40,599 nt of DNA, taken from NCBI GenBank assembly GCA_032718475.1, contig JAUCBJ010001366.1:1-40599 (forward strand). Reading direction: 5' to 3'. The translations under genes were made by a program, and so were the position numbers. Below the pieces are notes generated by a model. It did no database searches. It was not told where the DNA came from and was given only the letters and a program-made list of their open reading frames with translations. Shown here piece by piece: positions 3,867 through 39,600 of the stretch (its first letter is position 1; each line of letters begins with the position of its first letter). This DNA is from Nemertoderma westbladi (lineage: Eukaryota; Animalia; Xenacoelomorpha).

Positions 3867-4025
3867 GAGGGGGGGGGGGGGGGATTTCCCACGCAATTAG
3901 AATTCCTCCATCTCCAGGGGAAAATCGACGAAAAATATCAGCTGATTACTCCCAAAAATAAAACTGTAACCTTTATGCTATTGACTTCCCTTCGGTATTG
4001 TTTCGGTTCGAACAATATGTCACTG
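3867..4025 (+). repeat. Dispersed repeat, copy 1 (diverged homolog at 23694-23837)
   Basis: Shared collinear blocks: G-run, acgcaatt, ctccaggg(g/t)aaaatcgac, gctgatt, gtattgtttc(g/a)gtt(c/a)gaa. Confidence 0.65.
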
Positions 4026-4176
4026 TAACATGTTTTTTCCCCTTAATTTATTAATCGATAATTTAAGATTGATGTGAGATATTAATTCGCCGAGACAGGA
4101 TTGAACTGTATGGGGTTTTCTGTTTAATAGAGACAACCTTTTCTAATAATCATTATTGGTGTTGGTTTTATAGCCT

Positions 4177-5799
4177 ATGAATGCTACTATGAATGCACAA
4201 ATATCAGAACAGGAATTTCTCCTTCCGCTGGGAAACGGAGAGGTCAGCGACCTGGAAAGCGAAAGTAACTTGCCGCCAGACATTTCCCAAAGATTTGATG
4301 AAGTTATATGCGAGGTGTCCAGGGGTAGAGCCTACAGACTCACTGTGTTAGTAACCATGGCAACAGTACTCGCGTCTGAAGGAATATCAATGATCAGTGC
4401 GGCATTCGTCCTCCCTCAAGTAGAATCGGAACTGAATCTTTCTTCTCTTCAGACTGGATTAGTTGGCGGTTCTGTGTTCTTCGGGATGGCAATTGGTGCG
4501 CCAATATGGGGAAATATATCCGATAACTACGGTCGCAGGTCCTCCCTTACTGCAGCGCTCCTATTGGCTACCCTTTGCGGAGTATTAGCTGCTATTTCTC
4601 CTTACTTCTTACCTCTCTGCCTATTCCGAATACTCGCGGGTTTCGGTATAGGAGGCGCGGCAACCATGGTAATGCCCTACATCACAGAGATTATTGGCAG
4701 AAAGGACGCCCCCTGGTTTATCTGCGTTGTAATGCTTATCGGCTCCACTGGGGCGCTGATAGTCTCGGGTGCGGCTTGGATAATATTACCCCGAGACCTT
4801 CTAACTTTCTCTGTGGGTTCCATTACTATAGGTAGTTGGAGAATGTTCCTATTACTATGCACACTTCCAGCTGTCGTAGGCATTGCCTTAGTTACAAAGA
4901 TACCAAAAAGCCCCATGTACCTACTGGCAAGCGGTCGCTACATCGATGCAATCAGAGTTCTTATAAGAATAAGTCAATTGTCGAGACTTGAAACCACCCC
5001 TTTATTAAACGCACTTCCAAACATGACAATATCGGAAGACAAACTAATTTCTTACGGCCAACAGCCTGACTGCGATATTTGCCTCTACAAAGTCTATAAG
5101 CAGATCCGAAATGTCTCCAAGGCCGTTCCGGAGATGCTAAACATTCACCTAAGATGGACAACATTAACTCTATTAACGATGTGGTTAACTCTTGGTTTCG
5201 GTTATTACGGAATAAGCATATGGTTTGTTGAATACATCAAGGTATTAGAGGATAACATTTGGTCACCAACACACTTAATATCATTAGCTAATATGACGAT
5301 TAATTACAACGTTACGAAGAATATGGCAATTAATCAGACAAATAACGGGGATTTTGATGCGTTTGGTACTTATATGAGCGCATTTATCAGCGCGAGTTCA
5401 TTAGTACCCGGTTCCATGATCGCAGTTATCTTAGTTAAATGCATTCCTAGTAAGTTTATATACTTGGTTATGACTAACATTAGCGCTGTAGCCTTACTCG
5501 TAATCCTCGCCACGCCCAACGTGATGTTAATAACGCTGCTGTTCTGCATCTTCCAGATCGTGAATACCACCTCGTGGTGCGCGGTGCAATCATATACCCC
5601 CGGGGTGTATTCCAGTGAGATCCGCGCGATGGCGTACGGATTAATGATGTCGGTTAGTCGATTGGGTGCTATACTGGGCTCGGTTTGTTTCGGCGCTTGG
5701 GTGACGACTATACCCTCCCTACCTTTTGTACTGAGCGCAGTTCTACTCTCCGTTGGTGCGTGCTTGGCGATCACACTGCCGTCCACACCAGGTGGTTAA
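4177..5799 (+). CDS. Major facilitator superfamily transporter, SV2/SVOP-like, 540 aa, intronless CDS
   Basis: About 12 hydrophobic segments; MFS motif A GNISDNYGRR; RILAGFGIGG in TM4; WR after TM5/6; PKSP after TM6; YSSEIRAMAYG before TM11; N-glycosylation-rich loop between TM7 and TM8 (NMT, NVT, NQT) as in SV2-type proteins. Confidence 0.9.
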   Translation: MNATMNAQISEQEFLLPLGNGEVSDLESESNLPPDISQRFDEVICEVSRGRAYRLTVLVTMATVLASEGISMISAAFVLPQVESELNLSSLQTGLVGGSVFFGMAIGAPIWGNISDNYGRRSSLTAALLLATLCGVLAAISPYFLPLCLFRILAGFGIGGAATMVMPYITEIIGRKDAPWFICVVMLIGSTGALIVSGAAWIILPRDLLTFSVGSITIGSWRMFLLLCTLPAVVGIALVTKIPKSPMYLLASGRYIDAIRVLIRISQLSRLETTPLLNALPNMTISEDKLISYGQQPDCDICLYKVYKQIRNVSKAVPEMLNIHLRWTTLTLLTMWLTLGFGYYGISIWFVEYIKVLEDNIWSPTHLISLANMTINYNVTKNMAINQTNNGDFDAFGTYMSAFISASSLVPGSMIAVILVKCIPSKFIYLVMTNISAVALLVILATPNVMLITLLFCIFQIVNTTSWCAVQSYTPGVYSSEIRAMAYGLMMSVSRLGAILGSVCFGAWVTTIPSLPFVLSAVLLSVGACLAITLPSTPGG

Positions 5800-8700
5800 T
5801 GATCTCCGTTGGTGCGTGCTTGGCGGTCACACTGCCGTCCACACCAGGTGGTTAAATCTCCGTTGGTGCGTCCTTGGTGGTCACACTGCCATCCACACCA
5901 GGTGGTTAATGATCTCCGTTGGTGGGTGCTTGGCGGTCACACTGTCGTCCACACCAAGTGGTTAATGATCTCCGTTGGTTCGTGCTTGGAGGTCACACTG
6001 CCGTCCACACCAGGTGCTTAATGATCTCCGTTGGTTCGTGCTTGGTGGTCACACTGCCGTCCACACCAGGTGGTTAATGATCTCCGTTGGTTCGTGCTTG
6101 GCGGTCACACTGCCGTCCACACCAGGTGCTTAATGATCTCCGTTGGTTCGTGCTTGGTGGTCACACTGCCGTCCACACCAGGTGGTTAATGATCTCCGTT
6201 GGTTCGTGCTTGGCGGTCACACTGCCATCCACACCAGGTGGTTAATGATCTCCGTTGGTTCGTGCTTGGCGGTCACACTGCCATCCACACCAGGTGGTTA
6301 ATGATCTCCGTTGGTTCGTGCTTGGCGGTCACACTGCCATCCACACCAGGTGGTTAATGATCTCCGTTGGTTCGTGCTTGGCGGTCACACTGCCGTCCAC
6401 ACCAGGTGCTTAATGATCTCCGTTGGTTCGTGCTTGGTGGTCACACTGCCGTCCACACCAGGTGGTTAATGATCTCCGTTGGTTCGTGCTTGGCGGTCAC
6501 ACTGCCATCCACACCAGGTGGTTAATGATCTCCGTTGGTTCGTGCTTGGCGGTCACACTGCCATCCACACCAGGTGCTTAATGATCTCCGTTGGTGCGTG
6601 CTTGGCGGTCACACTGCCATCCACACCAGGTGGTTAATGATCTCCGTTGGTGCGTGCTTGGCGGTCACACTGCCGTCCACACCAGGTGGTTAATGATCTC
6701 CGTTGGTGCGTGCTTGGTGGTCACACTGCCGTCCACACCAGGTGGTTAATGATCTCCGTTGGTTCGTGCTTGGTGGTCACACTGCCGTCCACACCAGGTG
6801 GTTAATGATCTCCGTTGGTGCGTGCTTGGCGGTCACACTGCCGTCCACACCAGGTGGTTAATGATCTCCGTTGGTTCGTGCTTGGCGGTCACACTGCCAT
6901 CCACACCAGGTGCTTAATGATCTCCGTTGGTTCGTGCTTGGTGGTCACACTGCCGTCCACACCAGGTGGTTAATGATCTCCGTTGGTGCGTGCTTGGCGG
7001 TCACACTGTCGTCCACACCAAGTGGTTAATGATCTCCGTTGGTTCGTGCTTGGCGGTCACACTGCCGTCCACACCAGGTGCTTAATGATCTCCGTTGGTG
7101 CGTGCTTGGCGGTCACACTGCCATCCACACCAGGTGCTTAATGATCTCCGTTGGTGCGTGCTTGGCGGTCACACTGCCATCCACACCAGGTGGTTAATGA
7201 TCTCCGTTGGTTCGTGCTTGGCGGTCACACTGCCATCCACACCAGGTGCTTAATGATCTCCGTTGGTGCGTGCTTGGCGGTCACACTGCCATCCACACCA
7301 GGTGGTTAATGATCTCCGTTGGTTCGTGCTTGGTGGTTACACTGCCGTCCACACCAGGTGCTTAATGATCTCCGTTGGTGCGTGCTTGGTGGTCACACTG
7401 CCGTCCACACCAGGTGGTTAATGATCTCCGTTGGTGCGTGCTTGGCGGTCACACTGCCGTCCACACCAAGTGGTTAATGATCTCCGTTGGTTCGTGCTTG
7501 GCGGTCACACTGCCATCCACACCAGGTGCTTAATGATCTCCGTTGGTTCGTGCTTGGTGGTCACACTGCCGTCCACACCAGGTGGTTAATGATCTCCGTT
7601 GGTGCGTGCTTGGCGGTCACACTGTCGTCCACACCAAGTGGTTAATGATCTCCGTTGGTTCGTGCTTGGCGGTCACACTGCCGTCCACACCAGGTGCTTA
7701 ATGATCTCCGTTGGTGCGTGCTTGGCGGTCACACTGCCATCCACACCAGGTGCTTAATGATCTCCGTTGGTGCGTGCTTGGCGGTCACACTGCCATCCAC
7801 ACCAGGTGGTTAATGATCTCCGTTGGTTCGTGCTTGGCGGTCACACTGCCATCCACACCAGGTGCTTAATGATCTCCGTTGGTGCGTGCTTGGCGGTCAC
7901 ACTGCCATCCACACCAGGTGGTTAATGATCTCCGTTGGTTCGTGCTTGGTGGTTACACTGCCGTCCACACCAGGTGCTTAATGATCTCCGTTGGTGCGTG
8001 CTTGGTGGTCACACTGCCGTCCACACCAGGTGGTTAATGATCTCCGTTGGTTCGTGCTTGGCGGTCACACTGCCATCCACACCAGGTGGTTAATGATCTC
8101 CGTTGGTTCGTGCTTGGCGGTCACACTGCCATCCACACCAGGTGCTTAATGATCTCCGTTGGTGCGTGCTTGGCGGTCACACTGCCATCCACACCAGGTG
8201 GTTAATGATCTCCGTTGGTGCGTGCTTGGCGGTCACACTGCCATCCACACCAGGTGGTTAATGATCTCCGTTGGTTCGTGCTTGGCGGTCACACTGCCAT
8301 CCACACCAGGTGCTTAATGATCTCCGTTGGTGCGTGCTTGGCGGTCACACTGCCATCCACACCAGGTGCTTAATGATCTCCGTTGGTGCATGCTTGGCGG
8401 TCACACTGCCATCCACACCAGGTGGTTAATGATCTCCGTTGGTTCGTGCTTGGCGGTCACACTGCCATCCACACCAGGTGCTTAATGATCTCCGTTGGGT
8501 CGTGCTTGGTGGTCACACTGCCGTCCACACCAGGTGGTTAATGATCTCCGTTGGTTCGTGCTTGGTGGTCACACTGCCGTCCACACCAGGTGGTTAATGA
8601 TCTCCGTTGGTTCGTGCTTGGCGGTCACACTGCCATCCACACCAGGTGCTTAATGATCTCCGTTGGTGCGTGCTTGGCGGTCACACTGCCATCCACACCA

Positions 8701-11700
8701 GGTGGTTAATGATCTCCGTTGGTTCGTGCTTGGCGGTCACACTGCCGTCCACACCAGGTGCTTAATGATCTCCGTTGGTGCGTGCTTGGCGGTCACACTG
8801 CCATCCACACCAGGTGGTTAATGATCTCCGTTGGTTCGTGCTTGGCGGTCACACTGCCATCCACACCAGGTGGTTAATGATCTCCGTTGGTTTGTGCTTG
8901 GTGGTTACACTGCCGTCCACACCAGGTGGTTAATGATCTCCGTTGGTTCGTGCTTGGTGGTTACACTGCCGTCCACACCAGGTGGTTAATGATCTCCGTT
9001 GGTTCGTGCTTGGCGGTCACACTGCCATCCACACCAGGTGGTTAATGATCTCCGTTGGTTCGTGCTTGGCGGTCACACTGCCATCCACACCAGGTGGTTA
9101 ATGATCTCCGTTGGTGCGTGCTTGGCGGTCACACTGCCATCCACACCAGGTGGTTAATGATCTCCGTTGGTTCGTGCTTGGTGGTTACACTGCCGTCCAC
9201 ACCAGGTGGTTAATGATCTCCGTTGGTTCGTGCTTGGCGGTCACACTGCCATCCACACCAGGTGGTTAATGATCTCCGTTGGTGCGTGCTTGGCGGTCAC
9301 ACTGCCATCCACACCAGGTGGTTAATGATCTCCGTTGGTGCGTGCTTGGCGGTCACACTGCCATCCACACCAGGTGGTTAATGATCTCCGTTGGTTCGTG
9401 CTTGGCGGTCACACTGCCATCCACACCAGGTGGTTAATGATCTCCGTTGGTGCGTGCTTGGCGGTCACACTGCCATCCACACCAGGTGGTTAATGATCTC
9501 CGTTGGTTCGTGCTTGGCGGTCACACTGCCATCCACACCAGGTGCTTAATGATCTCCGTTGGGTCGTGCTTGGTGGTCACACTGCCGTCCACACCAGGTG
9601 GTTAATGATCTCCGTTGGTTCGTGCTTGGTGGTCACACTGCCGTCCACACCAGGTGGTTAATGATCTCCGTTGGTTCGTGCTTGGCGGTCACACTGCCAT
9701 CCACACCAGGTGCTTAATGATCTCCGTTGGTGCATGCTTGGCGGTCACACTGCCATCCACACCAGGTGGTTAATGATCTCCGTTGGTTCGTGCTTGGCGG
9801 TCACACTGCCGTCCACACCAGGTGCTTAATGATCTCCGTTGGTGCGTGCTTGGCGGTCACACTGCCATCCACACCAGGTGGTTAATGATCTCCGTTGGTT
9901 CGTGCTTGGCGGTCACACTGCCATCCACACCAGGTGGTTAATGATCTCCGTTGGTTTGTGCTTGGTGGTTACACTGCCGTCCACACCAGGTGGTTAATGA
10001 TCTCCGTTGGTTCGTGCTTGGTGGTTACACTGCCGTCCACACCAGGTGGTTAATGATCTCCGTTGGTTCGTGCTTGGCGGTCACACTGCCATCCACACCA
10101 GGTGGTTAATGATCTCCGTTGGTTCGTGCTTGGCGGTCACACTGCCATCCACACCAGGTGGTTAATGATCTCCGTTGGTGCGTGCTTGGCGGTCACACTG
10201 CCATCCACACCAGGTGGTTAATGATCTCCGTTGGTTCGTGCTTGGTGGTTACACTGCCGTCCACACCAGGTGGTTAATGATCTCCGTTGGTTCGTGCTTG
10301 GCGGTCACACTGCCATCCACACCAGGTGGTTAATGATCTCCGTTGGTGCGTGCTTGGCGGTCACACTGCCATCCACACCAGGTGGTTAATGATCTCCGTT
10401 GGTGCGTGCTTGGCGGTCACACTGCCATCCACACCAGGTGGTTAATGATCTCCGTTGGTTCGTGCTTGGCGGTCACACTGCCATCCACACCAGGTGGTTA
10501 ATGATCTCCGTTGGTGCGTGCTTGGCGGTCACACTGCCATCCACACCAGGTGGTTAATGATCTCCGTTGGTTCGTGCTTGGTGGTTACACTGCCGTCCAC
10601 ACCAGGTGGTTAATGATCTCCGTTGGTTCGTGCTTGGCGGTCACACTGCCATCCACACCAGGTGGTTAATGATCTCCGTTGGTGCGTGCTTGGCGGTCAC
10701 ACTGCCATCCACACCAGGTGGTTAATGATCTCCGTTGGTGCGTGCTTGGCGGTCACACTGCCATCCACACCAGGTGGTTAATGATCTCCGTTGGTTCGTG
10801 CTTGGCGGTCACACTGCCATCCACACCAGGTGGTTAATGATCTCCGTTGGTGCGTGCTTGGCGGTCACACTGCCATCCACACCAGGTGGTTAATGATCTC
10901 CGTTGGTGCGTGCTTGGCGGTCACACTGCCGTCCACACCAAGTGGTTAATGATCTCCGTTGGTTCGTGCTTGGCGGTCACACTGCCATCCACACCAGGTG
11001 CTTAATGATCTCCGTTGGGTCGTGCTTGGTGGTCACACTGCCGTCCACACCAGGTGGTTAATGATCTCCGTTGGTTCGTGCTTGGTGGTCACACTGCCGT
11101 CCACACCAGGTGGTTAATGATCTCCGTTGGTTCGTGCTTGGCGGTCACACTGCCATCCACACCAGGTGCTTAATGATCTCCGTTGGTTCGTGCTTGGTGG
11201 TCACACTGCCGTCCACACCAGGTGGTTAATGATCTCCGTTGGTGCGTGCTTGGCGGTCACACTGTCGTCCACACCAAGTGGTTAATGATCTCCGTTGGTT
11301 CGTGCTTGGCGGTCACACTGCCGTCCACACCAGGTGCTTAATGATCTCCGTTGGTGCGTGCTTGGCGGTCACACTGCCATCCACACCAGGTGCTTAATGA
11401 TCTCCGTTGGTGCGTGCTTGGCGGTCACACTGCCGTCCACACCAGGTGGTTAATGATCTCCGTTGGTTCGTGCTTGGCGGTCACACTGCCATCCACACCA
11501 GGTGTTTAATGATCTCCGTTGGTGCGTGCTTGGCGGTCACACTGCCATCCACACCAGGTGGTTAATGATCTCCGTTGGTTCGTGCTTGGCGGTCACACTG
11601 CCATCCACACCAGGTGCTTAATGATCTCCGTTGGTGCGTGCTTGGCGGTCACACTGCCATCCACACCAGGTGGTTAATGATCTCCGTTGGTTCGTGCTTG

Positions 11701-14700
11701 GCGGTCACACTGCCATCCACACCAGGTGGTTAATGATCTCCGTTGGTTCGTGCTTGGTGGTTACACTGCCGTCCACACCAGGTGGTTAATGATCTCCGTT
11801 GGTGCGTGCTTGGCGGTCACACTGCCATCCACACCAGGTGGTTAATGATCTCCGTTGGTTCGTGCTTGGCGGTCACACTGCCATCCACACCAGGTGGTTA
11901 ATGATCTCCGTTTGTTCGTGCTTGGCGGTCACACTGCCATCCACACCAGGTGTTTAATGATCTCCGTTGGTGCGTGCTTGGCGGTCACACTGCCATCCAC
12001 ACCAGGTGGTTAATGATCTCCGTTGGTTCGTGCTTGGCGGTCACACTGCCATCCACACCAGGTGGTTAATGATCTCCGTTGGTTCGTGCTTGGCGGTCAC
12101 ACTGCCGTCCACACCAGGTGCTTAATGATCTCCGTTAGTTCGTGCTTGGCGGTCACACTGCCGTCCACACCAGGTGGTTAATGATCTCCGTTGGTTCGTG
12201 CTTGGCGGTCACACTGCCATCCACACCAGGTGCTTAATGATCTCCGTTGGTGCGTGCTTGGCGGTCACACTGCCATCCACACCAGGTGGTTAATGATCTC
12301 CGTTGGTTCGTGCTTGGCGGTCACACTGCCGTCCACACCAGGTGCTTAATGATCTCCGTTAGTTCGTGCTTGGCGGTCACACTGCCGTCCACACCAGGTG
12401 GTTAATGATCTCCGTTGGTTCGTGCTTGGCGGTCACACTGCCATCCACACCAGGTGCTTAATGATCTCCGTTGGTGCGTGCTTGGCGGTCACACTGCCAT
12501 CCACACCAGGTGGTTAATGATCTCCGTTTGTTCGTGCTTGGCGGTCACACTGCCATCCACACCAGGTGTTTAATGATCTCCGTTGGTGCGTGCTTGGCGG
12601 TCACACTGCCATCCACACCAGGTGGTTAATGATCTCCGTTGGTTCGTGCTTGGCGGTCACATTGCCATCCACACCAGGTGTTTAATGATCTCCGTTGGTG
12701 CGTGCTTGGCGGTCACACTGCCATCCACACCAGGTGGTTAATGATCTCCGTTGGTTCGTGCTTGGCGGTCACACTGCCATCCACACCAGGTGGTTAATGA
12801 TCTCCGTTGGTTCGTGCTTGGCGGTCACACTGCCGTCCACACCAGGTGCTTAATGATCTCCGTTAGTTCGTGCTTGGCGGTCACACTGCCGTCCACACCA
12901 GGTGGTTAATGATCTCCGTTGGTTCGTGCTTGGCGGTCACACTGCCATCCACACCAGGTGCTTAATGATCTCCGTTGGTGCGTGCTTGGCGGTCACACTG
13001 CCATCCACACCAGGTGGTTAATGATCTCCGTTGGTTCGTGCTTGGTGGTCACACTGCCGTCCACACCAGGTGGTTAATGATCTCCGTTGGTTCGTGCTTG
13101 GCGGTCACACTGCCATCCACACCAGGTGGTTAATGATCTCCGTTGGTGCGTGCTTGGCGGTCACACTGCCATCCACACCAGGTGGTTAATGATCTCCGTT
13201 GGTGCGTGCTTGGCGGTCACACTGCCATCCACACCAGGTTGTTAATGATCTCCGTTGGTGCGTGCTTGGCGGTCACACTGCCGTCCACACCAGGTGGTTA
13301 ATGATCTCCGTTGGTTCGTGCTTGGCGTTCACACTGCCATCCACACCAGGTGGTTAATGATCTCCGTTGGTTCGTGCTTGGCGGTCACACTGCCATCCAC
13401 ACCAGGTGCTTAATGATCTCCGTTGGTGCGTGCTTGGCGGTCACACTGCCGTCCACACCAGGTGCTTAATGATCTCCGTTGGTGCGTGCTTGGCGGTCAC
13501 ACTGCCATCCACACCAGGTGCTTAATGATCTCCGTTGGTGCGTGCTTGGCGGTCACACTGCCATCCACACCAGGTGGTTAATGATCTCCGTTGGTTCGTG
13601 CTTGGCGGTCACACTGCCATCCACACCAGGTGCTTAATGATCTCCGTTGGTGCGTGCTTGGCGGTCACACTGCCATCCACACCAGGTGGTTAATGATCTC
13701 CGTTGGTGCGTGCTTGGCGGTCACACTGCCATCCACACCAGGTGGTTAATGATCTCCGTTGGTTCGTGCTTGGCGGTCACACTGCCATCCACACCAGGTG
13801 CTTAATGATCTCCGTTGGTGCGTGCTTGGCGGTCACACTGCCATCCACACCAGGTGGTTAATGATCTCCGTTGGTGCGTGCTTGGCGGTCACACTGCCAT
13901 CCACACCAGGTGGTTAATGATCTCCGTTGGTTCGTGCTTGGCGGTCACACTGCCATCCACACCAGGTGCTTAATGATCTCCGTTGGTGCGTGCTTGGCGG
14001 TCACACTGCCATCCACACCAGGTGGTTAATGATCTCCGTTGGTTCGTGCTTGGCGGTCACACTGCCATCCACACCAGGTGCTTAATGATCTCCGTTGGTG
14101 CGTGCTTGGCGGTCACACTGCCATCCACACCAGGTGGTTAATGATCTCCGTTGGTTCGTGCTTGGCGGTCACACTGCCATCCACACCAGGTGCTTAATGA
14201 TCTCCGTTGGTGCGTGCTTGGCGGTCACACTGCCATCCACACCAGGTGCTTAATGATCTCCTTTGGTGCGTGCTTGGCGGTCACACTGCCATCCACACCA
14301 GGTGCTTAATGATCTCCGTTGGTGCGTGCTTGGCGGTCACACTGCCATCCACACCAGGTGGTTAATGATCTCCGTTGGTTCGTGCTTGGCGGTCACACTG
14401 CCATCCACACCAGGTGGTTAATGATCTCCGTTGGTGCGTGCTTGGCGGTCACACTGCCATCCACACCAGGTGGTTAATGATCTCCGTTGGTGCGTGCTTG
14501 GCGGTCACACTGCCGTCCACACCAAGTGGTTAATGATCTCCGTTGGTTCGTGCTTGGCGGTCACACTGCCATCCACACCAGGTGCTTAATGATCTCCGTT
14601 GGGTCGTGCTTGGTGGTCACACTGCCGTCCACACCAGGTGGTTAATGATCTCCGTTGGTTCGTGCTTGGTGGTCACACTGCCGTCCACACCAGGTGGTTA

Positions 14701-17700
14701 ATGATCTCCGTTGGTTCGTGCTTGGCGGTCACACTGCCATCCACACCAGGTGCTTAATGATCTCCGTTGGTTCGTGCTTGGTGGTCACACTGCCGTCCAC
14801 ACCAGGTGGTTAATGATCTCCGTTGGTGCGTGCTTGGCGGTCACACTGTCGTCCACACCAAGTGGTTAATGATCTCCGTTGGTTCGTGCTTGGCGGTCAC
14901 ACTGCCGTCCACACCAGGTGCTTAATGATCTCCGTTGGTGCGTGCTTGGCGGTCACACTGCCATCCACACCAGGTGCTTAATGATCTCCGTTGGTGCGTG
15001 CTTGGCGGTCACACTGCCGTCCACACCAGGTGGTTAATGATCTCCGTTGGTTCGTGCTTGGCGGTCACACTGCCATCCACACCAGGTGTTTAATGATCTC
15101 CGTTGGTGCGTGCTTGGCGGTCACACTGCCATCCACACCAGGTGGTTAATGATCTCCGTTGGTTCGTGCTTGGCGGTCACACTGCCATCCACACCAGGTG
15201 CTTAATGATCTCCGTTGGTGCGTGCTTGGCGGTCACACTGCCATCCACACCAGGTGGTTAATGATCTCCGTTGGTTCGTGCTTGGCGGTCACACTGCCAT
15301 CCACACCAGGTGGTTAATGATCTCCGTTGGTTCGTGCTTGGTGGTTACACTGCCGTCCACACCAGGTGGTTAATGATCTCCGTTGGTGCGTGCTTGGCGG
15401 TCACACTGCCATCCACACCAGGTGGTTAATGATCTCCGTTGGTTCGTGCTTGGCGGTCACACTGCCATCCACACCAGGTGGTTAATGATCTCCGTTTGTT
15501 CGTGCTTGGCGGTCACACTGCCATCCACACCAGGTGTTTAATGATCTCCGTTGGTGCGTGCTTGGCGGTCACACTGCCATCCACACCAGGTGGTTAATGA
15601 TCTCCGTTGGTTCGTGCTTGGCGGTCACACTGCCATCCACACCAGGTGGTTAATGATCTCCGTTGGTTCGTGCTTGGCGGTCACACTGCCGTCCACACCA
15701 GGTGCTTAATGATCTCCGTTAGTTCGTGCTTGGCGGTCACACTGCCGTCCACACCAGGTGGTTAATGATCTCCGTTGGTTCGTGCTTGGCGGTCACACTG
15801 CCATCCACACCAGGTGCTTAATGATCTCCGTTGGTGCGTGCTTGGCGGTCACACTGCCATCCACACCAGGTGGTTAATGATCTCCGTTGGTTCGTGCTTG
15901 GTGGTTACACTGCCGTCCACACCAGGTGCTTAATGATCTCCGTTGGTGCGTGCTTGGTGGTCACACTGCCGTCCACACCAGGTGGTTAATGATCTCCGTT
16001 GGTTCGTGCTTGGCGGTCACACTGCCATCCACACCAGGTGGTTAATGATCTCCGTTGGTTCGTGCTTGGCGGTCACACTGCCATCCACACCAGGTGCTTA
16101 ATGATCTCCGTTGGTGCGTGCTTGGCGGTCACACTGCCGTCCACACCAGGTGCTTAATGATCTCCGTTGGTGCGTGCTTGGCGGTCACACTGCCATCCAC
16201 ACCAGGTGCTTAATGATCTCCGTTGGTGCGTGCTTGGCGGTCACACTGCCATCCACACCAGGTGGTTAATGATCTCCGTTGGTTCGTGCTTGGCGGTCAC
16301 ACTGCCATCCACACCAGGTGGTTAATGATCTCCGTTGGTGCGTGCTTGGCGGTCACACTGCCATCCACACCAGGTGGTTAATGATCTCCGTTGGTGCGTG
16401 CTTGGCGGTCACACTGCCATCCACACCAGGTGGTTAATGATCTCCGTTGGTTCGTGCTTGGCGGTCACACTGCCATCCACACCAGGTGCTTAATGATCTC
16501 CGTTGGTGCGTGCTTGGCGGTCACACTGCCATCCACACCAGGTGGTTAATGATCTCCGTTGGTGCGTGCTTGGCGGTCACACTGCCATCCACACCAGGTG
16601 GTTAATGATCTCCGTTGGTTCGTGCTTGGCGGTCACACTGCCATCCACACCAGGTGCTTAATGATCTCCGTTGGTGCGTGCTTGGCGGTCACACTGCCAT
16701 CCACACCAGGTGGTTAATGATCTCCGTTGGTTCGTGCTTGGCGGTCACACTGCCATCCACACCAGGTGCTTAATGATCTCCGTTGGTGCGTGCTTGGCGG
16801 TCACACTGCCATCCACACCAGGTGGTTAATGATCTCCGTTGGTTCGTGCTTGGCGGTCACACTGCCATCCACACCAGGTGCTTAATGATCTCCGTTGGTG
16901 CGTGCTTGGCGGTCACACTGCCATCCACACCAGGTGCTTAATGATCTCCTTTGGTGCGTGCTTGGCGGTCACACTGCCATCCACACCAGGTGCTTAATGA
17001 TCTCCGTTGGTGCGTGCTTGGCGGTCACACTGCCATCCACACCAGGTGGTTAATGATCTCCGTTGGTGCGTGCTTGGTGGTCACACTGCCATCCACACCA
17101 GGTGGTTAATGATCTCCGTTGGTTCGTGCTTGGCGGTCACACTGCCATCCACACCAGGTGGTTAATGATCTCCGTTGGTTCGTGCTTGGCGGTCACACTG
17201 CCATCCACACCAGGTGTTTAATGATCTCCGTTGGTTCGTGCTTGGCGGTCACACTGCCATCCACACCAGGTGCTTAATGATCTCCGTTGGTACGTGCTTG
17301 GCGGTCACACTGCCATCCACACCAGGTGGTTAATGATCTCCGTTGGTTCGTGCTTGGTGGTTACACTGCCGTCCACACCAGGTGGTTAATGATCTCCGTT
17401 GGTGCGTGCTTGGCGGTCACACTGCCATCCACACCAGGTGGTTAATGATCTCCGTTGGTTCGTGCTTGGCGGTGACACTGCCATCCACACCAGGTGGTTA
17501 ATGATCTCCGTTTGTTCGTGCTTGGCGGTCACACTGCCATCCACACCAGGTGTTTAATGATCTCCGTTGGTGCGTGCTTGGCGGTCACACTGCCATCCAC
17601 ACCAGGTGGTTAATGATCTCCGTTGGTTCGTGCTTGGCGGTCACACTGCCATCCACACCAGGTGGTTAATGATCTCCGTTGGTTCGTGCTTGGCGGTCAC

Positions 17701-19330
17701 ACTGCCGTCCACACCAGGTGGTTAATGATCTCCGTTGGTTCGTGCTTGGCGGTCACACTGCCATCCACACCAGGTGCTTAATGATCTCCGTTGGTGCGTG
17801 CTTGGCGGTCACACTGCCATCCACACCAGGTGGTTAATGATCTCCGTTGGTTCGTGCTTGGCGGTCACACTGCCGTCCACACCAGGTGGTTAATGATCTC
17901 CGTTGGTTCGTGCTTGGCGGTCACACTGCCATCCACACCAGGTGCTTAATGATCTCCGTTGGTTCGTGTTTGGCGGTCACACTGCCATCCACACCAGGTG
18001 GTTAATGATCTCCCTTGGTGCGTGCTTGGCGGTCACACTGCCATCCACACCAGGTGGTTAATGATCTCCGTTGGTGCGTGCTTGGTGGTCACACTGCCAT
18101 CCACACCAGGTGGTTAATGATCTCCGTTGGTTCGTGCTTGGCGGTCACACTGCCATCCACACCAGGTGGTTAATGATCTCCGTTGGTTCGTGCTTGGCGG
18201 TCACACTGCCATCCACACCAGGTGGTTAATGATCTCCGTTGGTTCGTGCTTGGCGGTCACACTGCCATCCACACCAGGTGCTTAATGATCTCCGTTGGTG
18301 CGTGCTTGGCGGTCACACTGCCATCCACACCAGGTGCTTAATGATCTCCGTTGGTTCGTGCTTGGCGGTCACACTGCCATCCACACCAGGTGGTTAATGA
18401 TCTCCGTTGGTTCGTGCTTGGCGGTCACACTGCCATCCACACCAGGTGCTTAATGATCTCCGTTGGTGCGTGCTTGGCGGTCACACTGCCATCCACACCA
18501 GGTGGTTAATGATCTCCGTTGGTTCGTGCTTGGCGGTCACACTGCCATCCACACCAGGTGGTTAATGATCTCCGTTGGTTCGTGCTTGGCGGTCACACTG
18601 CCATCCACACCAGGTGGTTAATGATCTCCGTTGGTGCGTGCTTGGCGGTCACACTGCCATCCACACCAGGTGGTTAATGATCTCCGTTGGTGCGTGCTTG
18701 GCGGTCACACTGCCATCCACACCAGGTGGTTAATGATCTCCGTTGGTGCGTGCTTGGCGGTCACACTGCCATCCACACCAGGTGGTTAATGATCTCCGTT
18801 GGTGCGTGCTTGGCGGTCACACTGCCATCCACACCAGGTGGTTAATGATCTCCGTTGGTGCGTGCTTGGCGGTCACACTGCCATCCACACCAGGTGGTTA
18901 ATGATCTCCGTTGGTGCGTGCTTGGCGGTCACACTGCCATCCACACCAGGTGGTTAATGATCTCCGTTGGTGCGTGCTTGGCGGTCACACTGCCATCCAC
19001 ACCAGGTGGTTAATGATCTCCGTTGGTGCGTGCTTGGTGGTTACACTGCCGTCCACACCAGGTGCTTAATGATCTCCGTTGGTGCGTGCTTGGTGGTCAC
19101 ACTGCCATCCACACCAGGTGGTTAAATCTCCGTTGGTGCGTGCTTGGCGGTCACACTGCCATCCACACCAGGTGGTTAAATCTCCGTTGGTGCGTGCTTG
19201 GCGGTCACACTGCCATCCACACCAGGTGGTTAATGATCTCCGTTGGTTCGTGCTTGGCGGTCACACTGCCATCCACACCAGGTGGTTAACGATCTCCGTT
19301 GGTGCGTGCTGGGCGGTCACACTGCCATCC
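5747..19330 (+). repeat. 56-bp minisatellite, ~243 copies (13.6 kb); the unit is the last codons, stop and 3 nt of the MFS gene
   Basis: Unit tctccgttggt(g/t)cgtgcttgg(c/t)ggtcacactgcc(a/g)tccacaccaggtg(g/c)ttaatga; the first copy lies in the CDS (SVGACLAITLPSTPGG*); the last copy is partial and ends at 19330. Confidence 0.98.
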
Positions 19331-20532
19331 TGCAGTTAAATTCGAAGGAAATCTTTACTTAACTAATTTGGAACTACTGTAGTTACTATTTAAATATACT
19401 GTAATACTGTATTTAATGATTGTCTCATTTATGAAGTACAATAATAATTTATTCATGAAAGTAAACAGAATATAAAATAATATTATTATTCCGACTTTCG
19501 GGGAGCTGAGAAGAAATCAATACCCGTAATTAAGTATAAGATGACGCTATTTAGGGCGACTACGGCAGTATCATACCTAAGTTGTACACTATTTAACCGT
19601 AAGTTGTCTCACTTTAAAGGGTCAACATGGATATATTCGATTAAAAAACTTACTTCCGGTTTTGAAAAGAAAGTTTAATGTTCACATTATATTTTTGCAT
19701 AGTGTTTTATTTATGGTAATGTTTTCGGATAGATAATAATAATGGTGCAATATACCAGTACAGATTAATAATAATTCCAATTATTAGGTTTAATTGTACA
19801 ATTCTATGGTCAAAAGATCCATAGCTAACGTTCGTACAATAATACAATCTATACTGCAGATGAAAACCGCACGAAAACAGCACCAATTGTTGCTATGAGT
19901 TCACAGAATAACCATATCATTACCATGGTAACAAGACCTATGGCACTTCGGATTAAAGTTACACCGTACGTTTAAAAGTTAAACAACATTAAAACAACCA
20001 AAGTTAAAAAATACAACTAGCCTTATAATTTAAATAATTTAAACCAACATTGCAATTAATTAAATTATTACGATGTTCAATAAAATGTTTTTAAACTATA
20101 ATTAATATAATGCTATTATTTTCATAGTCTTGTAAGACGTTGAATTTAAAATAGACCCAAACTTTTATTAAATAATTATAATAATACTTCAAACTAACTG
20201 GCAAGATTGGTTTCATACAAACAATACAATGCCTTTTATTCGAATACAGAATTTGGCATTCCATAAATATTGTCCTGTATGTAATAGCTAGCTAGAGTAT
20301 AAAAAGCAAAACAAAATAGTCGCGTAATCTCAAATACGATGGGACATAAGAAGTTGTAATTAAATATTGTTTGAATATTTCTCCAACTTATTAAAAATTT
20401 GTATTATCATATCGATGAATCGCATTATTTTCCTTTTTACTAAATAAAAATAAATAATTATTTTATCAAATAAGGAAATTAATGGCACTTTACTGATATT
20501 TGCATTTGTAAATCGTTTCAGTTTTGTATAAT

Positions 20533-21969: not shown

Positions 21970-31978
<10,009 letters not shown>

Positions 31979-32318: not shown

Positions 32319-34280
32319 TCACCACAGAACTTTCTTGCCGAGAGTTTTTTTAAGCACATACGCAGAGAAACGTTTAAGGAAGCGCGGGTACTCGCGTTTA
32401 TATACGGCGCGAAGTACAGAAGCAGGGGCCCAGCCACCGGGATGAACATTTGCTGTATAAATAATCCGACATCTCAAATGATCTCTTGATACTTTGTCTT
32501 TATTCTTATGTGGCACATCCAACAATGTCTGACATATTAACGCGACTTGCATTGTGGCGCGTACGTACTTGGTGTTAGCCGCTTGGCTGTGGTCTATAGA
32601 GTAATTGAATACCCCCCAGGTATCGAGATGTCCCCCACTGCCTCCGTCCGATATCTTACGAATGTGGGACACGAAACAGGTGTCCCGTTGGACCGTCGGC
32701 CAGACGCGTTTCATAACCTGGTGGAGAATCGTGGTGTCAGCGGAAAGTTCGTCTATTACGTTAATAGATTCCAAAGTCGAAGTTTCCCATTCCATTCTTA
32801 CATCTGGGTCGTAGAATAAATTTGTTATCTCGTGGGCTGTGAATCCTTTCACTGTGTGGGCGGCTTTCAGTGGATCGCATACCAAACCGCCCTCTTCTTC
32901 CTCACGTCTGTAAACCTTCAGGTCCCCTTCCTGGTATATGCAATCCCATTGACCTTCTGGCCCAACCTCTTCCATCGCGTAGGTAAACAATGTTTTCACA
33001 TGATTCTCAACTTCTGTTGATCTACTGTGTATTGTTCCTGGGGGACTCAGCGATATCTGTGCGTCTTTGTTACCTCGTACGGGTTTCTCCACCATTTCCT
33101 GTTCGTAATCGCGTTTATCCAGCGCCATCTCCACAGCATCGAAGAACTCTTCCTCAGCGAGGGCGCAGGCAGGCCCTTCCTCGTAGTCGGGGCCATGGAG
33201 AGGGCGGGGGTGGTTGGCCAATAGGTCGATGGCTTGTCGGTAACATTCCTCTGTCCGTTGGCGACGGTCTTTCTCTCGCTCAATTTTCTTCACCCACGTC
33301 TCCTCTCTTTTAGACATAAGCTCCATACAGTATTGTAAGGTTGCTAAGATGCCAGTTGTAGTTGCCCGAAATGTAATCGCTTCTCCTCGGAAATCAACAG
33401 CCTGCTGGGGGGATATCTCTGGAGGTAGAAGCGGTTTGGTCAGACTCGCTTTGCGTTGGTGACCTCTGCCGCACGGTGATTGGCTGAACGGCGGACGGTA
33501 GGGTGTGGGGGCGTGGCCGGGCAATAACCCCGGGTGGTTACTAGGCAATGGTGACACTGAGGTGGGGGACACTGGTGGTTGCGATGCCAACACTGAGTCG
33601 GTGCCTCTCAAAGTCAAGTCGTCGATCTCAATATCAGTTACATTGTAACTATCCTCTGATTGGCCAAAAGAATCAGCACACCTATCGAAGTAACTCTGTA
33701 ATGTCTCTATCTGCCGCACCAGAATGTCCCTAAAGGTCTCCATCTCTGCGAGCTTCTCCCTCAGACTTCGGCCTTTCGCGTTGAAACTACCGCTAGAGGC
33801 GTAACTTGCCATGGAGTGTAGGGACATGAGAGACCCCTCCCTACGCAGGCTGCCATGGGAACCGTAGCCGGACTCAGACTTCTGTGATTCTAAGTCGTCG
33901 ATCCATTGTTGGCGTTCAGTTCGACTGGAAGATCGTAGGTAATAGATGGAGTCGTTTACGGCACTCACATCGAACCTTAGTTCGTCAAATTCGTGAGCCT
34001 TTATAGTGGCTCGATTTAAACTGATTGTTCCTCTCGTACCGAAATCAATGTCTTCCTCTGATTTATAATAACTCAAAGTTCCGTTCTTCAGTACAAAAAA
34101 CCGTTCCTGCCATCCATTAATATAATTAGTCCATTTACACAGAACGCCTTGTCGTTCAGGGATATGAACATCTGTTGAATCAGAAAGCTCCTCTTCTTCC
34201 GACATGCTGGAACTGCAAGCTTCGGCGTTGAGTTGGGAACCTGCATGTATTGCTGTACCGGTACCGGTGGGTGTTGTCAT
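32319..34280 (-). CDS. CERT1: Ceramide transfer protein (CERT/COL4A3BP/STARD11) ortholog, 653 aa, intronless CDS
   Basis: PH domain (GVLCKWTNYINGWQERFFVL), serine-repeat motif (SLRREGSLMSLHSMASYASSGS), FRGEAITFRATT segment, FFAT motif EEEFFDAVE, START domain ending NVHPGGWAPASVLRAVYKREYPRFLKRF. The start could be the second Met (MSEEEE). Confidence 0.95.
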   Translation of the reverse strand: MTTPTGTGTAIHAGSQLNAEACSSSMSEEEELSDSTDVHIPERQGVLCKWTNYINGWQERFFVLKNGTLSYYKSEEDIDFGTRGTISLNRATIKAHEFDELRFDVSAVNDSIYYLRSSSRTERQQWIDDLESQKSESGYGSHGSLRREGSLMSLHSMASYASSGSFNAKGRSLREKLAEMETFRDILVRQIETLQSYFDRCADSFGQSEDSYNVTDIEIDDLTLRGTDSVLASQPPVSPTSVSPLPSNHPGLLPGHAPTPYRPPFSQSPCGRGHQRKASLTKPLLPPEISPQQAVDFRGEAITFRATTTGILATLQYCMELMSKREETWVKKIEREKDRRQRTEECYRQAIDLLANHPRPLHGPDYEEGPACALAEEEFFDAVEMALDKRDYEQEMVEKPVRGNKDAQISLSPPGTIHSRSTEVENHVKTLFTYAMEEVGPEGQWDCIYQEGDLKVYRREEEEGGLVCDPLKAAHTVKGFTAHEITNLFYDPDVRMEWETSTLESINVIDELSADTTILHQVMKRVWPTVQRDTCFVSHIRKISDGGSGGHLDTWGVFNYSIDHSQAANTKYVRATMQVALICQTLLDVPHKNKDKVSRDHLRCRIIYTANVHPGGWAPASVLRAVYKREYPRFLKRFSAYVLKKTLGKKVLW

Positions 34281-34700
34281 CCTGGTATGCTGTACTACAG
34301 TCTGACAGTACCGGTACTACTGTACTACCCAAGGACAGCTCTACTACAGGACCTGAGGACTGGCAAGTGGCAAGCCTATTTCCCCGATACCGCTACAGCG
34401 CTAGCGGGGGCCATTCTGCCATTGTACAGTTTGTTGTTGAATGTCTGTATGTGTACTGCAGTACTGGCTGACTGGCCTATTGTTGATATGAATATGTAGG
34501 CCGCTGTCAGGCTGTAGTGTAGTGCTGTAGTGTAGGACTACAACCAGACAACTCAGCAACTGCCATAATGCAGAACTAGACCGGTACTGTACTGCTGTAC
34601 TTGCAGACTTGTAGTAAATTTCCCACTCCAAATTATTAGTTTTTATGGATTAATTAATAATATTTGAGATTCTTATTTTCTTCCTTAACTGCTATACCGG

Positions 34701-35359
34701 TGTCACAGGCGAAAATGTCCCCCCGCGCGGAATGCCCTGCCCAGGGGGGCATATTCGCCTAGCGCCAAATGTCCCCCCCCCCGGGTCACATACTGACATA
34801 GGCCTAGCGCCATATGGCCCCCTACCGCGCAGAATGCCCCCCCCCCCCCCCCGGTGATTTTATGGTTTGAAATAAGGGATTCAATTGTAATTTCATTACA
34901 CATTACATTAGGCCTATTTATTAGGCCTATTATTTATAAGTATACCAGAATACCATAAACAATATACAATATGATACATAACAATGTACATAGTGGGTGG
35001 TATTAATGAATTCTTAAAAAGCTTAACTTCTGCCACGAACTCACGTCCCTGATCTGACATCACGATCTCCGCCACCCCATAGCGAGTCAACAATTCGTAC
35101 AGAAATTCCGCAACGCGAGTCTTTTCCAGGAAGAGCCTTGGCTTCGGGCCATTGCACTGGGGGCACATGCTGCACTGTGTCAGCTCATGATTTAGTATCT
35201 TAATTCTGAATCTTATCTTAATTCTTTGCAGTTGGGGTGGGGCATTTGGCGCGGAAGGGGGTCATTACGCGCTCGGCGAGTATACCCGGGGGTAATTACG
35301 CGCTAGGCGATTACGCCCAGGGGGGCGTATTCTACAGGGGGGCAATTTCGACTGGGACA
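34701..35359 (-). mobile_element. Non-autonomous Ginger-like DNA transposon (TGT...ACA ends, CCGG target duplication, integrase fragment)
   Basis: ccgg|TGTCACAGGCGAAAATG... and ...CAATTTCGACTGGGACA|ccgg; imperfect GC-rich TIRs over 60 bp; internal minus-strand peptide VAEFLYELLTRYGVAEIVMSDQGREFV resembles the Gypsy-type integrase core. Confidence 0.7.
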
Positions 35360-35375
35360 CCGGTACTGTAATAAT

Positions 35376-36362
35376 GACGAAGACAGGAAGAAGTGTTGTG
35401 TCTTTGGGTGTGGCGGCAATTATAAAGGAAATCCGGTTCGCACTGTGAAGTTGCCTCCGTCCGCAACTGAGCGCGATAAGTGGATTTCGGCGTTATACCT
35501 AAGCGAGTTATCTGCATTCAGCATTGGCTGAATTTTCCCGTTGCCGTTCCACATAAAAAAGTTCCAGGTGGATCGTTGCGGCCAACCATTCCCCTGTTCC
35601 ACTTCCCAGGCATTCCTGTCTCCTGTATCCCAACTCCTCCCATCCCTGTACACAAAACTCCTCCCATTGAAGAGCGACAGTTGGCCCTACTGAATCAGAT
35701 CGATTCAATTTCCGGTTTTCCAGAATTATCCGAGAAACTGGATCGAAAATTAACCGAGATACCCACATATGGAACTGATATGGAGATCTTCGTAAAGAGA
35801 AGGATTAGCCACATTCTCATCTTTGTGTTCCATATGGATAAGTATATGGGCAAGAGAGGTCTTCCTTAAACAACAGTTCCTTTCCGATATGTGTCTGCGC
35901 TGAGACCCATTGCTATTGTTCAACGCCTTTCTGATATAGACTCTAAGGCCACGGACTGTGAACGCTGGGCTGCCGCATACGTAGCGGGATATCTGTTACG
36001 TGTTGTACCAGAACTTGAAAACTCAGAATATGTAGTGCAAGCGGACAGTACTTTTATTCGAAATCTGTCACGTGGTGGTACAACTGCCCTGCCAAGAGTT
36101 GGTGTGGTGGACATTGGCTTCAGCAGCCTTTGTTGATCTTGTGCCCCATGGCACAATTCGCTGTCATAAGCAACTTGTTGTAATCATCGATCTAATTGCC
36201 AGCTACTATGATATTTTCCCAAGACCGCCTATAGCCGCGTGTCGTGTTCTAGCTAACACGATTATAAACGGCCTGCAGAAGAGAACCCCGGATTCACATC
36301 AAACTGAGAACAGACGCCATACTGGGGCTCATACCAAACTGGCTCGAATTACGGGAACATAA
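35376..36362 (+). pseudogene. Decayed THAP-domain / P-element-like transposase remnant
   Basis: KKCCVFGCGGNY...KLPPSATERDKWISA (Cys codons from 35394), frameshift, then KRVICIQHW...PTIPLF form a THAP C2CH zinc finger; downstream AAYVAGYLLR and LSRGG/QLPC resemble the P-element/THAP9 C-terminal motifs; multiple frameshifts; catalytic core apparently deleted. Confidence 0.6.
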
Positions 36363-37517
36363 CATTTCTAGGACTATTTTATAGTAGGATAATTTCTGTA
36401 CCTTTAGAGACTGTTATATTTCCATTTTTATCACATTTATAATGGTCCCACATATTACTTTTAAAATAAATATGTGAATTATACAATAACAAAGAAATAT
36501 ACAATAACTTGTAGCCATAATGCGATACGAAAGTAAAAAAGTGAGCTTTTTATACGTTGATTTACTCGGTTACCATAGCAACAAACTGTTATTTTGGTTG
36601 TCAATAATTCATTGCTGATAGAGCTTGTTTTAGGCTGCCATAGGGGTAATTTTTCAGTTTGTGTCATAATTATTAACGTAATATTATAATTTGAAATTAA
36701 ACAATGTATCTTCATAAGTGATACACAAATTGGTGCTTCACCTATTAAAATTAAAATTCAAGGTCTTTAAATAAAAAATGGATAAGAATAAATAATCTAT
36801 TCGTTTTCACTGTAAAATTTTACTCCAGATAGACCCTGAACCGCGGTGTAATGGTCATATATCGACTGTTTATTAAGTATAACGCAATGGCGGGTGCACC
36901 ACCTCAGATAGAATAGAATCGGGTCGTACACCCAGAAGTCGCGGCACAACCGGGGGTATAACACTCCCTACCTATAGAGTGGTTAGCCAATAGGAGGCCG
37001 TTATAGCGGCGAATGGAAGGCAAGAGCAGGCCTAAATGCGGCAAGAAATCAACAGCTAGGTGGAATAAATAGAATAAATTGGCAAGATAAAAATTACTGC
37101 AACCCTACAATAGAGACCAAGTACAAGAACAATGGATTAATAGCCAAAGAGAAGAACAAAGACAGACAGCAACAGTTAGGAGTAGTACCCCAATTCCAAA
37201 GCGACCAGAGATAAATCAATATATGGAAAAACAAATAAAGGAATAGTCCGAACATCCAACTTACACGTTCGTGGGGCCTTCGCGCAGCACGAGGCCCAGT
37301 TATGAGATACAAATTAAAACTGAGCGACTGTATCACAAAATCAGTATTTGAGAAATTTACCCACACCACCAATCAATTAAAGAAAGGGGTACAGTACGTG
37401 TTCAGCCCTTTTAATCTGCACCCCCCCCCCCTTCCCACCCACCAATACATAACCGCGACATCTACCACCCACGGAAGGGTAGCACGAACTTATTTCCAAT
37501 CGCACGTTCAATTTGCA

Positions 37518-38930: not shown

Positions 38931-39046
38931 ACAGGTTGATTAATGGTACCACTACGCTAAGGCTCACTCACTTCGTGGCTCGCCCCACAGGTTGATTAAT
39001 GGTACCACTACGCTAAGGCTCACTCACTTCGTGGCTCGCCCCACAG
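38931..39046. repeat. Exact 56-bp tandem duplication (two copies plus acag)
   Basis: 38931-38986 is identical to 38987-39042; unrelated in sequence to the 56-bp MFS unit. Confidence 0.95.
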
Positions 39047-39049
39047 TCA

Positions 39050-39600
39050 AGGTGTTACTTACATCCGGAACGGATAATCATTCATTGAAGGAATGTGTAA
39101 CCTGGAAAGGATTAACGCAAGACGACCAATGGAATTATATTAGGCTGAATGGACAGTTTGTATTTACCACAAGGGCATATAGCCAAAGGATGTAGAGAGA
39201 GACGAAATTATAGAAGTAGGAGTGCAGACTATTTATGACAACAGCAGACAAGACTGCATATTTGTCAGTAATGGTAGTGAGAGAGGGAGACCATGAGAAA
39301 GAAACTATGATGGACAGAACAATTATTCCAATGACAGACGGAATAATTACTCAGACAATAGAAGCGAACGAGGAAATAATTACAATGATAGGAGTAATTT
39401 CGACAGTAGAAGAAATAATACGGATAGTAGGAATTTATCTAATCACGACAACCATAAAAACAACAGAAGAGAAAATATTGAGGGATACAGAGTACGACAG
39501 CCGGAAAATAATAAATAGGAGAATAAACCAGATAACTAACCGAAATACAAACCACAAGAAGAGTCAAAAACGGTAACGAGAGTGGGGACATGTATGTTGG
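39050..39600 (+). mobile_element. Possible decayed LTR-retrotransposon gag fragment (BEL/Pao-like zinc knuckles plus N/R/D-rich tract)
   Basis: HSLKECVTWKGLTQDDQWNYIRLNG, then QGHIAKGCRERR in another frame, followed by a purine-rich stretch reading RNYDGQNNYSNDRRNNYSDNR with stops. Confidence 0.35.

Follow-up and report, generated by a model that had tools for sequence, protein, structure and literature searches.

How does a transcript end when the last codons and the stop codon of its gene have become the first unit of a minisatellite of 243 units? The question is raised by a 40,599-nt stretch of DNA from Nemertoderma westbladi (GenBank assembly GCA_032718475.1, contig JAUCBJ010001366.1, positions 1–40,599 of the forward strand), hereafter the window, in which a single-exon gene for an SV2-like transporter of the MFS family runs into an array of 56-bp repeats. 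The first-pass annotation of this DNA had offered three outcomes, namely a 13.5-kb repetitive 3′ untranslated region (UTR), non-canonical termination within the array, or splicing out of the array. A contig with a GT..AG joint from one sequencing run points to the last of these, but the joint lies inside the coding sequence (CDS), and the resulting loss of 92 codons had not been foreseen. The array has probably created a new intron of 13.8 kb, a substantial share of the transcripts being spliced from a donor at 5521 to the acceptor AG in the last complete repeat.

The gene and its repeated end

The two elements on which the question turns overlap at the end of the gene:

4177–5799, + strand: SV2-like MFS transporter open reading frame (ORF), single exon, 540 amino acids (ORF, Pfam and PDB matches)
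5747–19330, + strand: 56-bp minisatellite of 243 units, the unit consisting of the last 17 codons and TAA TGA

Tandem repeats were called with TRF (Tandem Repeats Finder) and the array was then split unit by unit. Positions 5747–19330 form a single TRF array (period 56, 242.7 copies, 96% matches), and splitting gave 239 units of 56 bp, three of 54 bp and one of 38 bp, with 39 distinct types among the 243, which confirms the roughly 243-fold amplification of the gene end claimed in the first-pass annotation. Its reading of the unit, with Ile or Val at one position before TAA TGA, also holds: unit 1, the genuine end of the ORF, is SVGACLAITLPSTPGG followed by TAA TGA; the Ile form is confined to this unit, and Val is found in the most frequent unit type (64 counted). 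An AG|GT site is present in 234 of the 243 units, which the earlier annotation had not mentioned, nor had it mentioned the two sister arrays described below. The consensus unit holds a single AG, located within this site, and a YTNAY motif lies 49 nt upstream of the AG of each unit. The array has a homogenised interior and divergent edge units; the 54-bp form occurs at 5850, 19120 and 19174 only, and unit 1 and the final units are unique. Blocks of 28, 14, 13 and 10 units are duplicated inside the array, while shuffled arrays reach at most 7 (n = 100), a pattern that suggests growth by unequal exchange.

Eight sequencing runs are listed, of which four, from three samples, contain the MFS gene (X1–X4); none is recorded as RNA, which says nothing about expression. 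All four contain array-unit contigs at high depth, so the array is not an assembly artefact. The ratio of array to gene depth is 44–548 in the three DNA-like runs, but does not measure copy number, since it changes by a factor of two between runs of the same sample. A role of the array as a coding repeat was rejected, the longest stop-free run in six frames being 90 codons.

The encoded protein exceeds the Pfam cut-offs for both MFS_1 and Sugar_tr, and its top PDB matches are the human SV2/SVOP-like transporters SV2A and SV2B (E ~1e-50), to which residues 31–356 and 379–536 align, ending at an LP-x-T motif. It is called SV2-like rather than SV2 proper because it lacks the large SV2 luminal domain: about 105 residues separate the aligned blocks in SV2A and about 22 here. 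An initial protein search returned 14 distant MFS proteins with 21–31% identity, and identity does not exceed 36% among the 150 relatives listed. In X1, X2 and X4 (three of the four runs) G4179T abolishes the first ATG (4177), whereas a second ATG at 4189, giving 536 amino acids, is intact in these three runs. A 3-bp deletion at 4152 is also common to X1, X2 and X4.

Unit 1 is, on comparison with related proteins, the natural end of the gene or near it. The protein ends in ITLPSTPG, aligned with LKLPETRG in the SV2 match; the Pro of the LP motif is found in 93 relatives, in which the modal tail after LP is eight residues (39 of 93), against five here, and P+2 is most often Thr (39 of 93). The right end of the array, which reads ..LPSCS followed by a stop, was considered as the ancestral gene end and is disfavoured, because Thr is commonest at P+2 and Cys lies outside the top five residues there. 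The final 92 residues are conserved in extent, at least 70% of their length being aligned in 124 of the 150 listed relatives, and include the near-invariant R491.

A joint inside the coding sequence

Contigs of the four runs were aligned over positions 4000–5858 of the window. X1, X2 and X3 cover 4000–5769 or further in an unbroken piece. A contig of X4 (1,708 nt, depth 141) follows 4001–5520 and then skips, with GT..AG ends, into a repeat unit; measured against a single unit the joint is 5520|5792-equivalent, a skip of 271. Past the joint the contig carries 49 nt of the repeat unit with three differences, and then 142 nt that do not align, of which the first 30 letters equal 19331–19360, unique DNA beyond the array. 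Exactly the same three differences mark 19282–19330, the next-best array position is two differences away, and every 31-mer starting between 19260 and 19330 is unique within the window. Hence, the acceptor is placed at the last full unit and the skip becomes 5521–19281, or 13,761 nt. As Logan contigs are described as built at k = 31 (10.1101/2024.07.30.605881), an overlap of 3 nt could not have created the joint in assembly, and reads must cross it. The features that follow from this placement are:

5521–5526, + strand: cryptic weak donor GT in the CDS, after codon 448, phase 0 (X4 joint; 4/9 of the donor consensus)
5521–19281, + strand: putative new GT-AG intron of 13,761 nt, comprising the 3′ part of the CDS and the array minus its last 49 nt (X4 contig, taken as RNA)
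19226–19281, + strand: acceptor used in X4, with YTNAY 49 nt upstream, an AG-free stretch and CAG (sequence context)
19282–19472, + strand: putative terminal exon, 49 nt of array and 142 nt of unique DNA, 26 residues; the right edge is the contig end, not a poly(A) site
5789–5797, + strand: AG|GT of unit 1, donor 6/9, which with the 19281 acceptor would give an intact protein (precise Rogers-type splice); such a joint was not seen

The joint is in phase 0, so that 448 codons are retained, 92 are lost and 26 non-hydrophobic codons are gained. The lost codons contain hydrophobic peaks and part of the second block aligned to SV2A, and alignment and hydropathy peaks agree in placing the last three predicted helices in the removed part; going by SV2A topology, we take these to be TM10–12 of a twelve-helix fold. 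No X4 contig covers 5550–5735, and one contig bridges that gap at full gene depth. Splices from unit 1 to AG 19335 or AG 19382 were not seen in X4, whose contig retains 19331–19360.

Is the joint made in RNA? X4 is filed as 'DNA?', and its RNA nature is our reading of its contents. The dispersed repeat upstream of the gene has 1.2 times the depth of the gene in X4, compared with 64 times in X3, 84 times in X1 and 302 times in X2; the longest record is 11.6 kb in X4 and 31–137 kb in the other runs; and the study to which X4 belongs includes two other species. These hints, the depths among them being summed over contigs and so a poor measure, suggest that X4 is likely to be RNA. In X4 the array reaches roughly 20–26 times gene depth, a rough figure, against 44–548 times in the others; some array-bearing RNA or DNA must consequently be in the run, and the long-UTR form of the mRNA may coexist with the spliced form.

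Splicing, deletion or artefact

Several points speak against a spliced intron. The donor at 5521 matches 4 of 9 consensus positions, compared with 6–8 for four donors of a cathepsin-L-like gene in the window and 6 for unit 1, while neither a GT at 5450 (7/9) nor the unit-1 site (6/9) was seen used, and the array acceptor is T-poor relative to the cathepsin acceptors. The two sides of the joint share 3 nt (GTG) and a wider likeness, as a deletion or a template switch would leave; this likeness ranks 20–48 among 1,530 CDS positions (top 1–3%), but is ordinary among GTG starts (3–6 of 17). The joint is a single contig in one of four runs and one of three samples, that run is filed as 'DNA?', and contigs give presence rather than share, so that intact mRNA may be frequent and yet lost in pruning. 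Part of this evidence would fit a microhomology-mediated deletion of 5521–19281 in the genome of the X4 individual, with the short allele yielding a stable mRNA and the array allele little. The weak donor, the shared GTG with partial likeness around it, the confinement of the joint to one sample and an array that is actively rearranging (its largest duplicated block has 28 units) all agree with such a deletion. However, random deletions from the CDS into the array have GT..AG ends in only 411 of 300,413 draws (0.14%), and in just 198 of 4,729 (4.2%) when at least 3 nt of microhomology is demanded; X1–X3 DNA is unbroken at that place; and the endpoint is the last acceptor, not another of about 240. 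Terminal-exon definition favours the acceptor nearest the 3′ end, and we infer that use of the last acceptor is what it would lead one to expect and a deletion would not. A private deletion thus appears improbable. A switch of template by reverse transcriptase between similar sequences during library preparation, a known caveat for repeat-bounded introns according to the sections of PMC2812944 on such cases, would account for the short sequence shared at the joint, but is very improbable given an exact overlap of only 3 nt, canonical ends and a main contig path at depth 141. The units and the donor region moreover fold ordinarily (z −1.7 to +1.7), and a special RNA structure of the units was rejected.

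A different kind of alternative leaves the protein mostly intact, the mRNA either being read through into a 13.5-kb repetitive 3′ UTR or undergoing a Rogers-type splice from 5792 to 19281, with the observed joint as a short unique side product. The array sequence in X4 at 20–26 times gene depth is in line with this, as is a unit-1 donor that beats the one at 5521, and a short path that lies next to deep array nodes may be lost when a contig graph is pruned. The CDS also has no frameshift or stop in any of the four runs, an intactness that counts against a damaging intron. Logan contigs are, as far as their description goes, simplified graphs, and precise splicing of a duplicated AGGT at 6–16% efficiency is reported for human cells in the relevant part of PMC3265369. 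Against a mostly intact product stand the missing 5550–5735 contig in X4, with a single contig bridging the place at full gene depth, and the mainly non-synonymous polymorphism of X3. Compared with the CDS of the window, X3 has seven non-synonymous and two synonymous changes, a ratio of non-synonymous to synonymous polymorphism (pN/pS) of ~1.2 (P = 0.017 under omega 0.2), which hints at relaxed selection; these nine sites, for which there is no control gene, also fit omega 0.3–0.5 (P = 0.07–0.23), and the ratio falls to 0.78 when one further synonymous site, present in just one contig of X2, is counted. We regard a mostly intact product as unlikely, though worth keeping in mind.

How the intron may have arisen

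For the intron proposed here, a sequence of steps can be suggested. The gene end would first have been duplicated over a short length and then have grown into an array by slippage and unequal exchange, like the two cathepsin arrays, and the 54-bp form found at both array edges may be the older form. The array brought an AG|GT site with it and has moved the poly(A) region 13.5 kb downstream. As the array offers no poly(A) signal, transcription would extend into the AT-rich DNA beyond 19330, where the acceptor closest to the 3′ end could define a new terminal exon and recruit a latent donor upstream in the CDS. Splicing would then drop the array together with the last three predicted membrane helices, leaving a short and stable mRNA, and the product of 448 + 26 codons would presumably be a poor transporter, so that the gene is likely to be partly or largely inactivated. 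Unspliced mRNA with its 13.5-kb UTR would be underrepresented through decay or 3′ bias and is probably scarce among poly(A) RNA.

Of 13 poly(A)-type hexamers scanned, none lies inside the array, and ATTAAA at 19640 and AATAAA at 20079 follow it, as the first-pass annotation had stated; weaker hexamers precede both (19389–19471), among them AATATA (19393, 19469), AGTAAA (19460) and TATAAA (19471). The array was also described there as far richer in GC and CpG than its flanks and a possible target of methylation. Its GC content is indeed 56%, compared with 46% in the CDS and 30–35% in non-coding DNA on either side, and its CpG density of 55 per kb is twice that of the flanks (24–26), but it equals that of the CDS (52), and at 0.71 its observed/expected ratio falls below those of the other three regions (flanks and CDS 0.86–1.10). 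With CpG no denser than in the CDS, composition lends little support to CpG-driven silencing of the array.

Sister arrays in a cathepsin-L-like gene

Two further arrays are found in the window, on the opposite strand:

21970–31978, − strand: cathepsin-L-like gene, five exons (31978–31739, 31588–31409, 30317–30117, 22933–22765 and 22178–21970), boundaries predicted from sequence
30553–31459, − strand: sister array of 18 copies, 50-bp unit made of the last 40 nt of exon 2, the donor and the intron to +10 (TRF, sequence)
23882–30152, − strand: sister array of ~131 copies, 47-bp unit made of the last 36 nt of exon 3, the donor and the intron to +11 (TRF, sequence)

The gene has the Pfam domains I29 and Peptidase_C1, and its exons are in frame over GT-AG introns. 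The arrays occupy consecutive introns of this one gene; the 50-bp unit contains the active-site motif QCGSCWAF, and the + strand of the 47-bp array can be read in two frames for ~2,140 codons without meeting a stop, probably by coincidence. The cathepsin units consist of 40 + 10 and 36 + 11 nt of exon and intron, and the MFS unit, when cut at its AG|GT, divides into 45 + 11 nt; in all three exon-seeded arrays the unit ends 10–11 nt past a GT. Of four long arrays in the window, three begin at the 3′ end of an exon, for which a rough chance calculation gives P ~4e-5 (seven exon ends × 56 nt in 18,643 non-array bases), or P = 1.3e-3 for two of three when the given array is excluded, both figures ignoring the purging of arrays elsewhere in exons and the sharing of one gene by two of the three arrays. 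A likeness of the gene architecture to that of glass sponges was at most a lead, and PMC10282587 makes no mention of arrays of this type in the sections concerned. It is conceivable, if doubtful, that a habit linked to splicing amplifies exon 3′ ends, and that the 13.8-kb intron was born of it, maybe being removed stepwise via ~240 ratchet sites and inactivating the gene while its ORF stays intact.

Relation to known systems

Intron gain by tandem duplication is the closest parallel, in that an exonic AGGT segment has been duplicated in tandem and yields a splice site (see also PMC4974935). The removal of a GT-AG segment from RNA via a duplicated site may have its counterpart here in the GT..AG joint on the AG of the last unit, provided that X4 is RNA. 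According to the relevant section of PMC3443670, the imprecise form of this process switches on latent splice sites close to the duplicated segment and takes away coding nucleotides, and the MFS joint, with 92 codons lost and 26 gained, fits this form and not the precise Rogers intron. According to part of PMC2812944, minisatellites in human paralogs, with an average of 4 × 30 bp, have likewise activated cryptic sites and given rise to new introns. Unlike these cases, the unit here includes the stop codon, has reached 243 copies and 13.6 kb and sits in a single-exon gene, and the joint seen removes 92 conserved codons.

The array also resembles the mirage minisatellites of amphioxus (PMC3087553) and the human F7 IVS7 37-bp variable number tandem repeat (PMC1557585), for which we draw on parts of each account: unit 1 is a real exon end, the interior is homogenised, the edges are divergent and many latent sites are present. 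By sequence the cathepsin-L arrays are mirages, spanning an exon-intron boundary. However, mirages span an existing boundary and are said, in the sections concerned, to leave splicing normal, whereas the MFS array, in an ORF of a single exon, spans the stop codon and is therefore no mirage in the strict sense; it also appears to change the mRNA, the sole transcript-like contig being altered. Recursive splicing proceeds at ratchet points of the form AG|GT. Nearly every MFS unit is similarly an acceptor immediately followed by GT, but in contrast to ratchet points the donor regenerated after a first step would be weak. The inner units are too much alike for short words to tell one from another.

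Exon-end minisatellites and introns gained by tandem duplication are known, and what would set this locus apart is a form that spans a stop codon and creates an intron; word searches of a partial literature library returned no stop-spanning minisatellite creating a truncating intron. Few natural gains of this kind have a visible source. Should the joint prove to be spliced RNA, the locus is a very large, young and damaging example of the imprecise type, with ~240 near-identical acceptors and donors. It would then allow tests of how a terminal acceptor and a donor are selected among decoys that extend over 13.6 kb, of whether array length sets the share of truncated mRNA, and of whether a repeat behind the stop codon can disable an intronless gene with its frame untouched. 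Should it instead be a private deletion, the array is an ordinary, though large, exon-end minisatellite.

Other features of the window

The fourth long array, an AT-rich 19-bp minisatellite of 63 copies at 1–1194, is cut at the window start, and no link to an exon was found for it within the window. Perfect two-copy tandem duplications in non-coding DNA at 1722–1894 (83 bp) and 38931–39046 (56 bp) are possible seeds of further arrays. Positions 3870–4095 and 23690–23880 form a diverged pair of dispersed elements, of which the one just 5′ of the MFS start is present at high copy number in the runs that resemble DNA. A single-exon gene for the ceramide transfer protein (CERT), with PH and START domains, lies at 32319–34316 on the − strand, its product showing 43–49% identity among the 120 relatives listed. 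Next to it, at 34697–35360, is an element with short inverted ends and no Pfam match, the − strand of which presumably carries a retro-integrase-like fragment. Broken frames at 35380–36370 (+ strand) begin with a CCVFGC stretch that we take to be zinc-finger-like and are probably what is left of a decayed DNA-transposon gene, and a degenerate Arg/Asn/Asp-rich frame at 39040–39600 (+ strand) is presumably gag-like, with a motif resembling a zinc knuckle.

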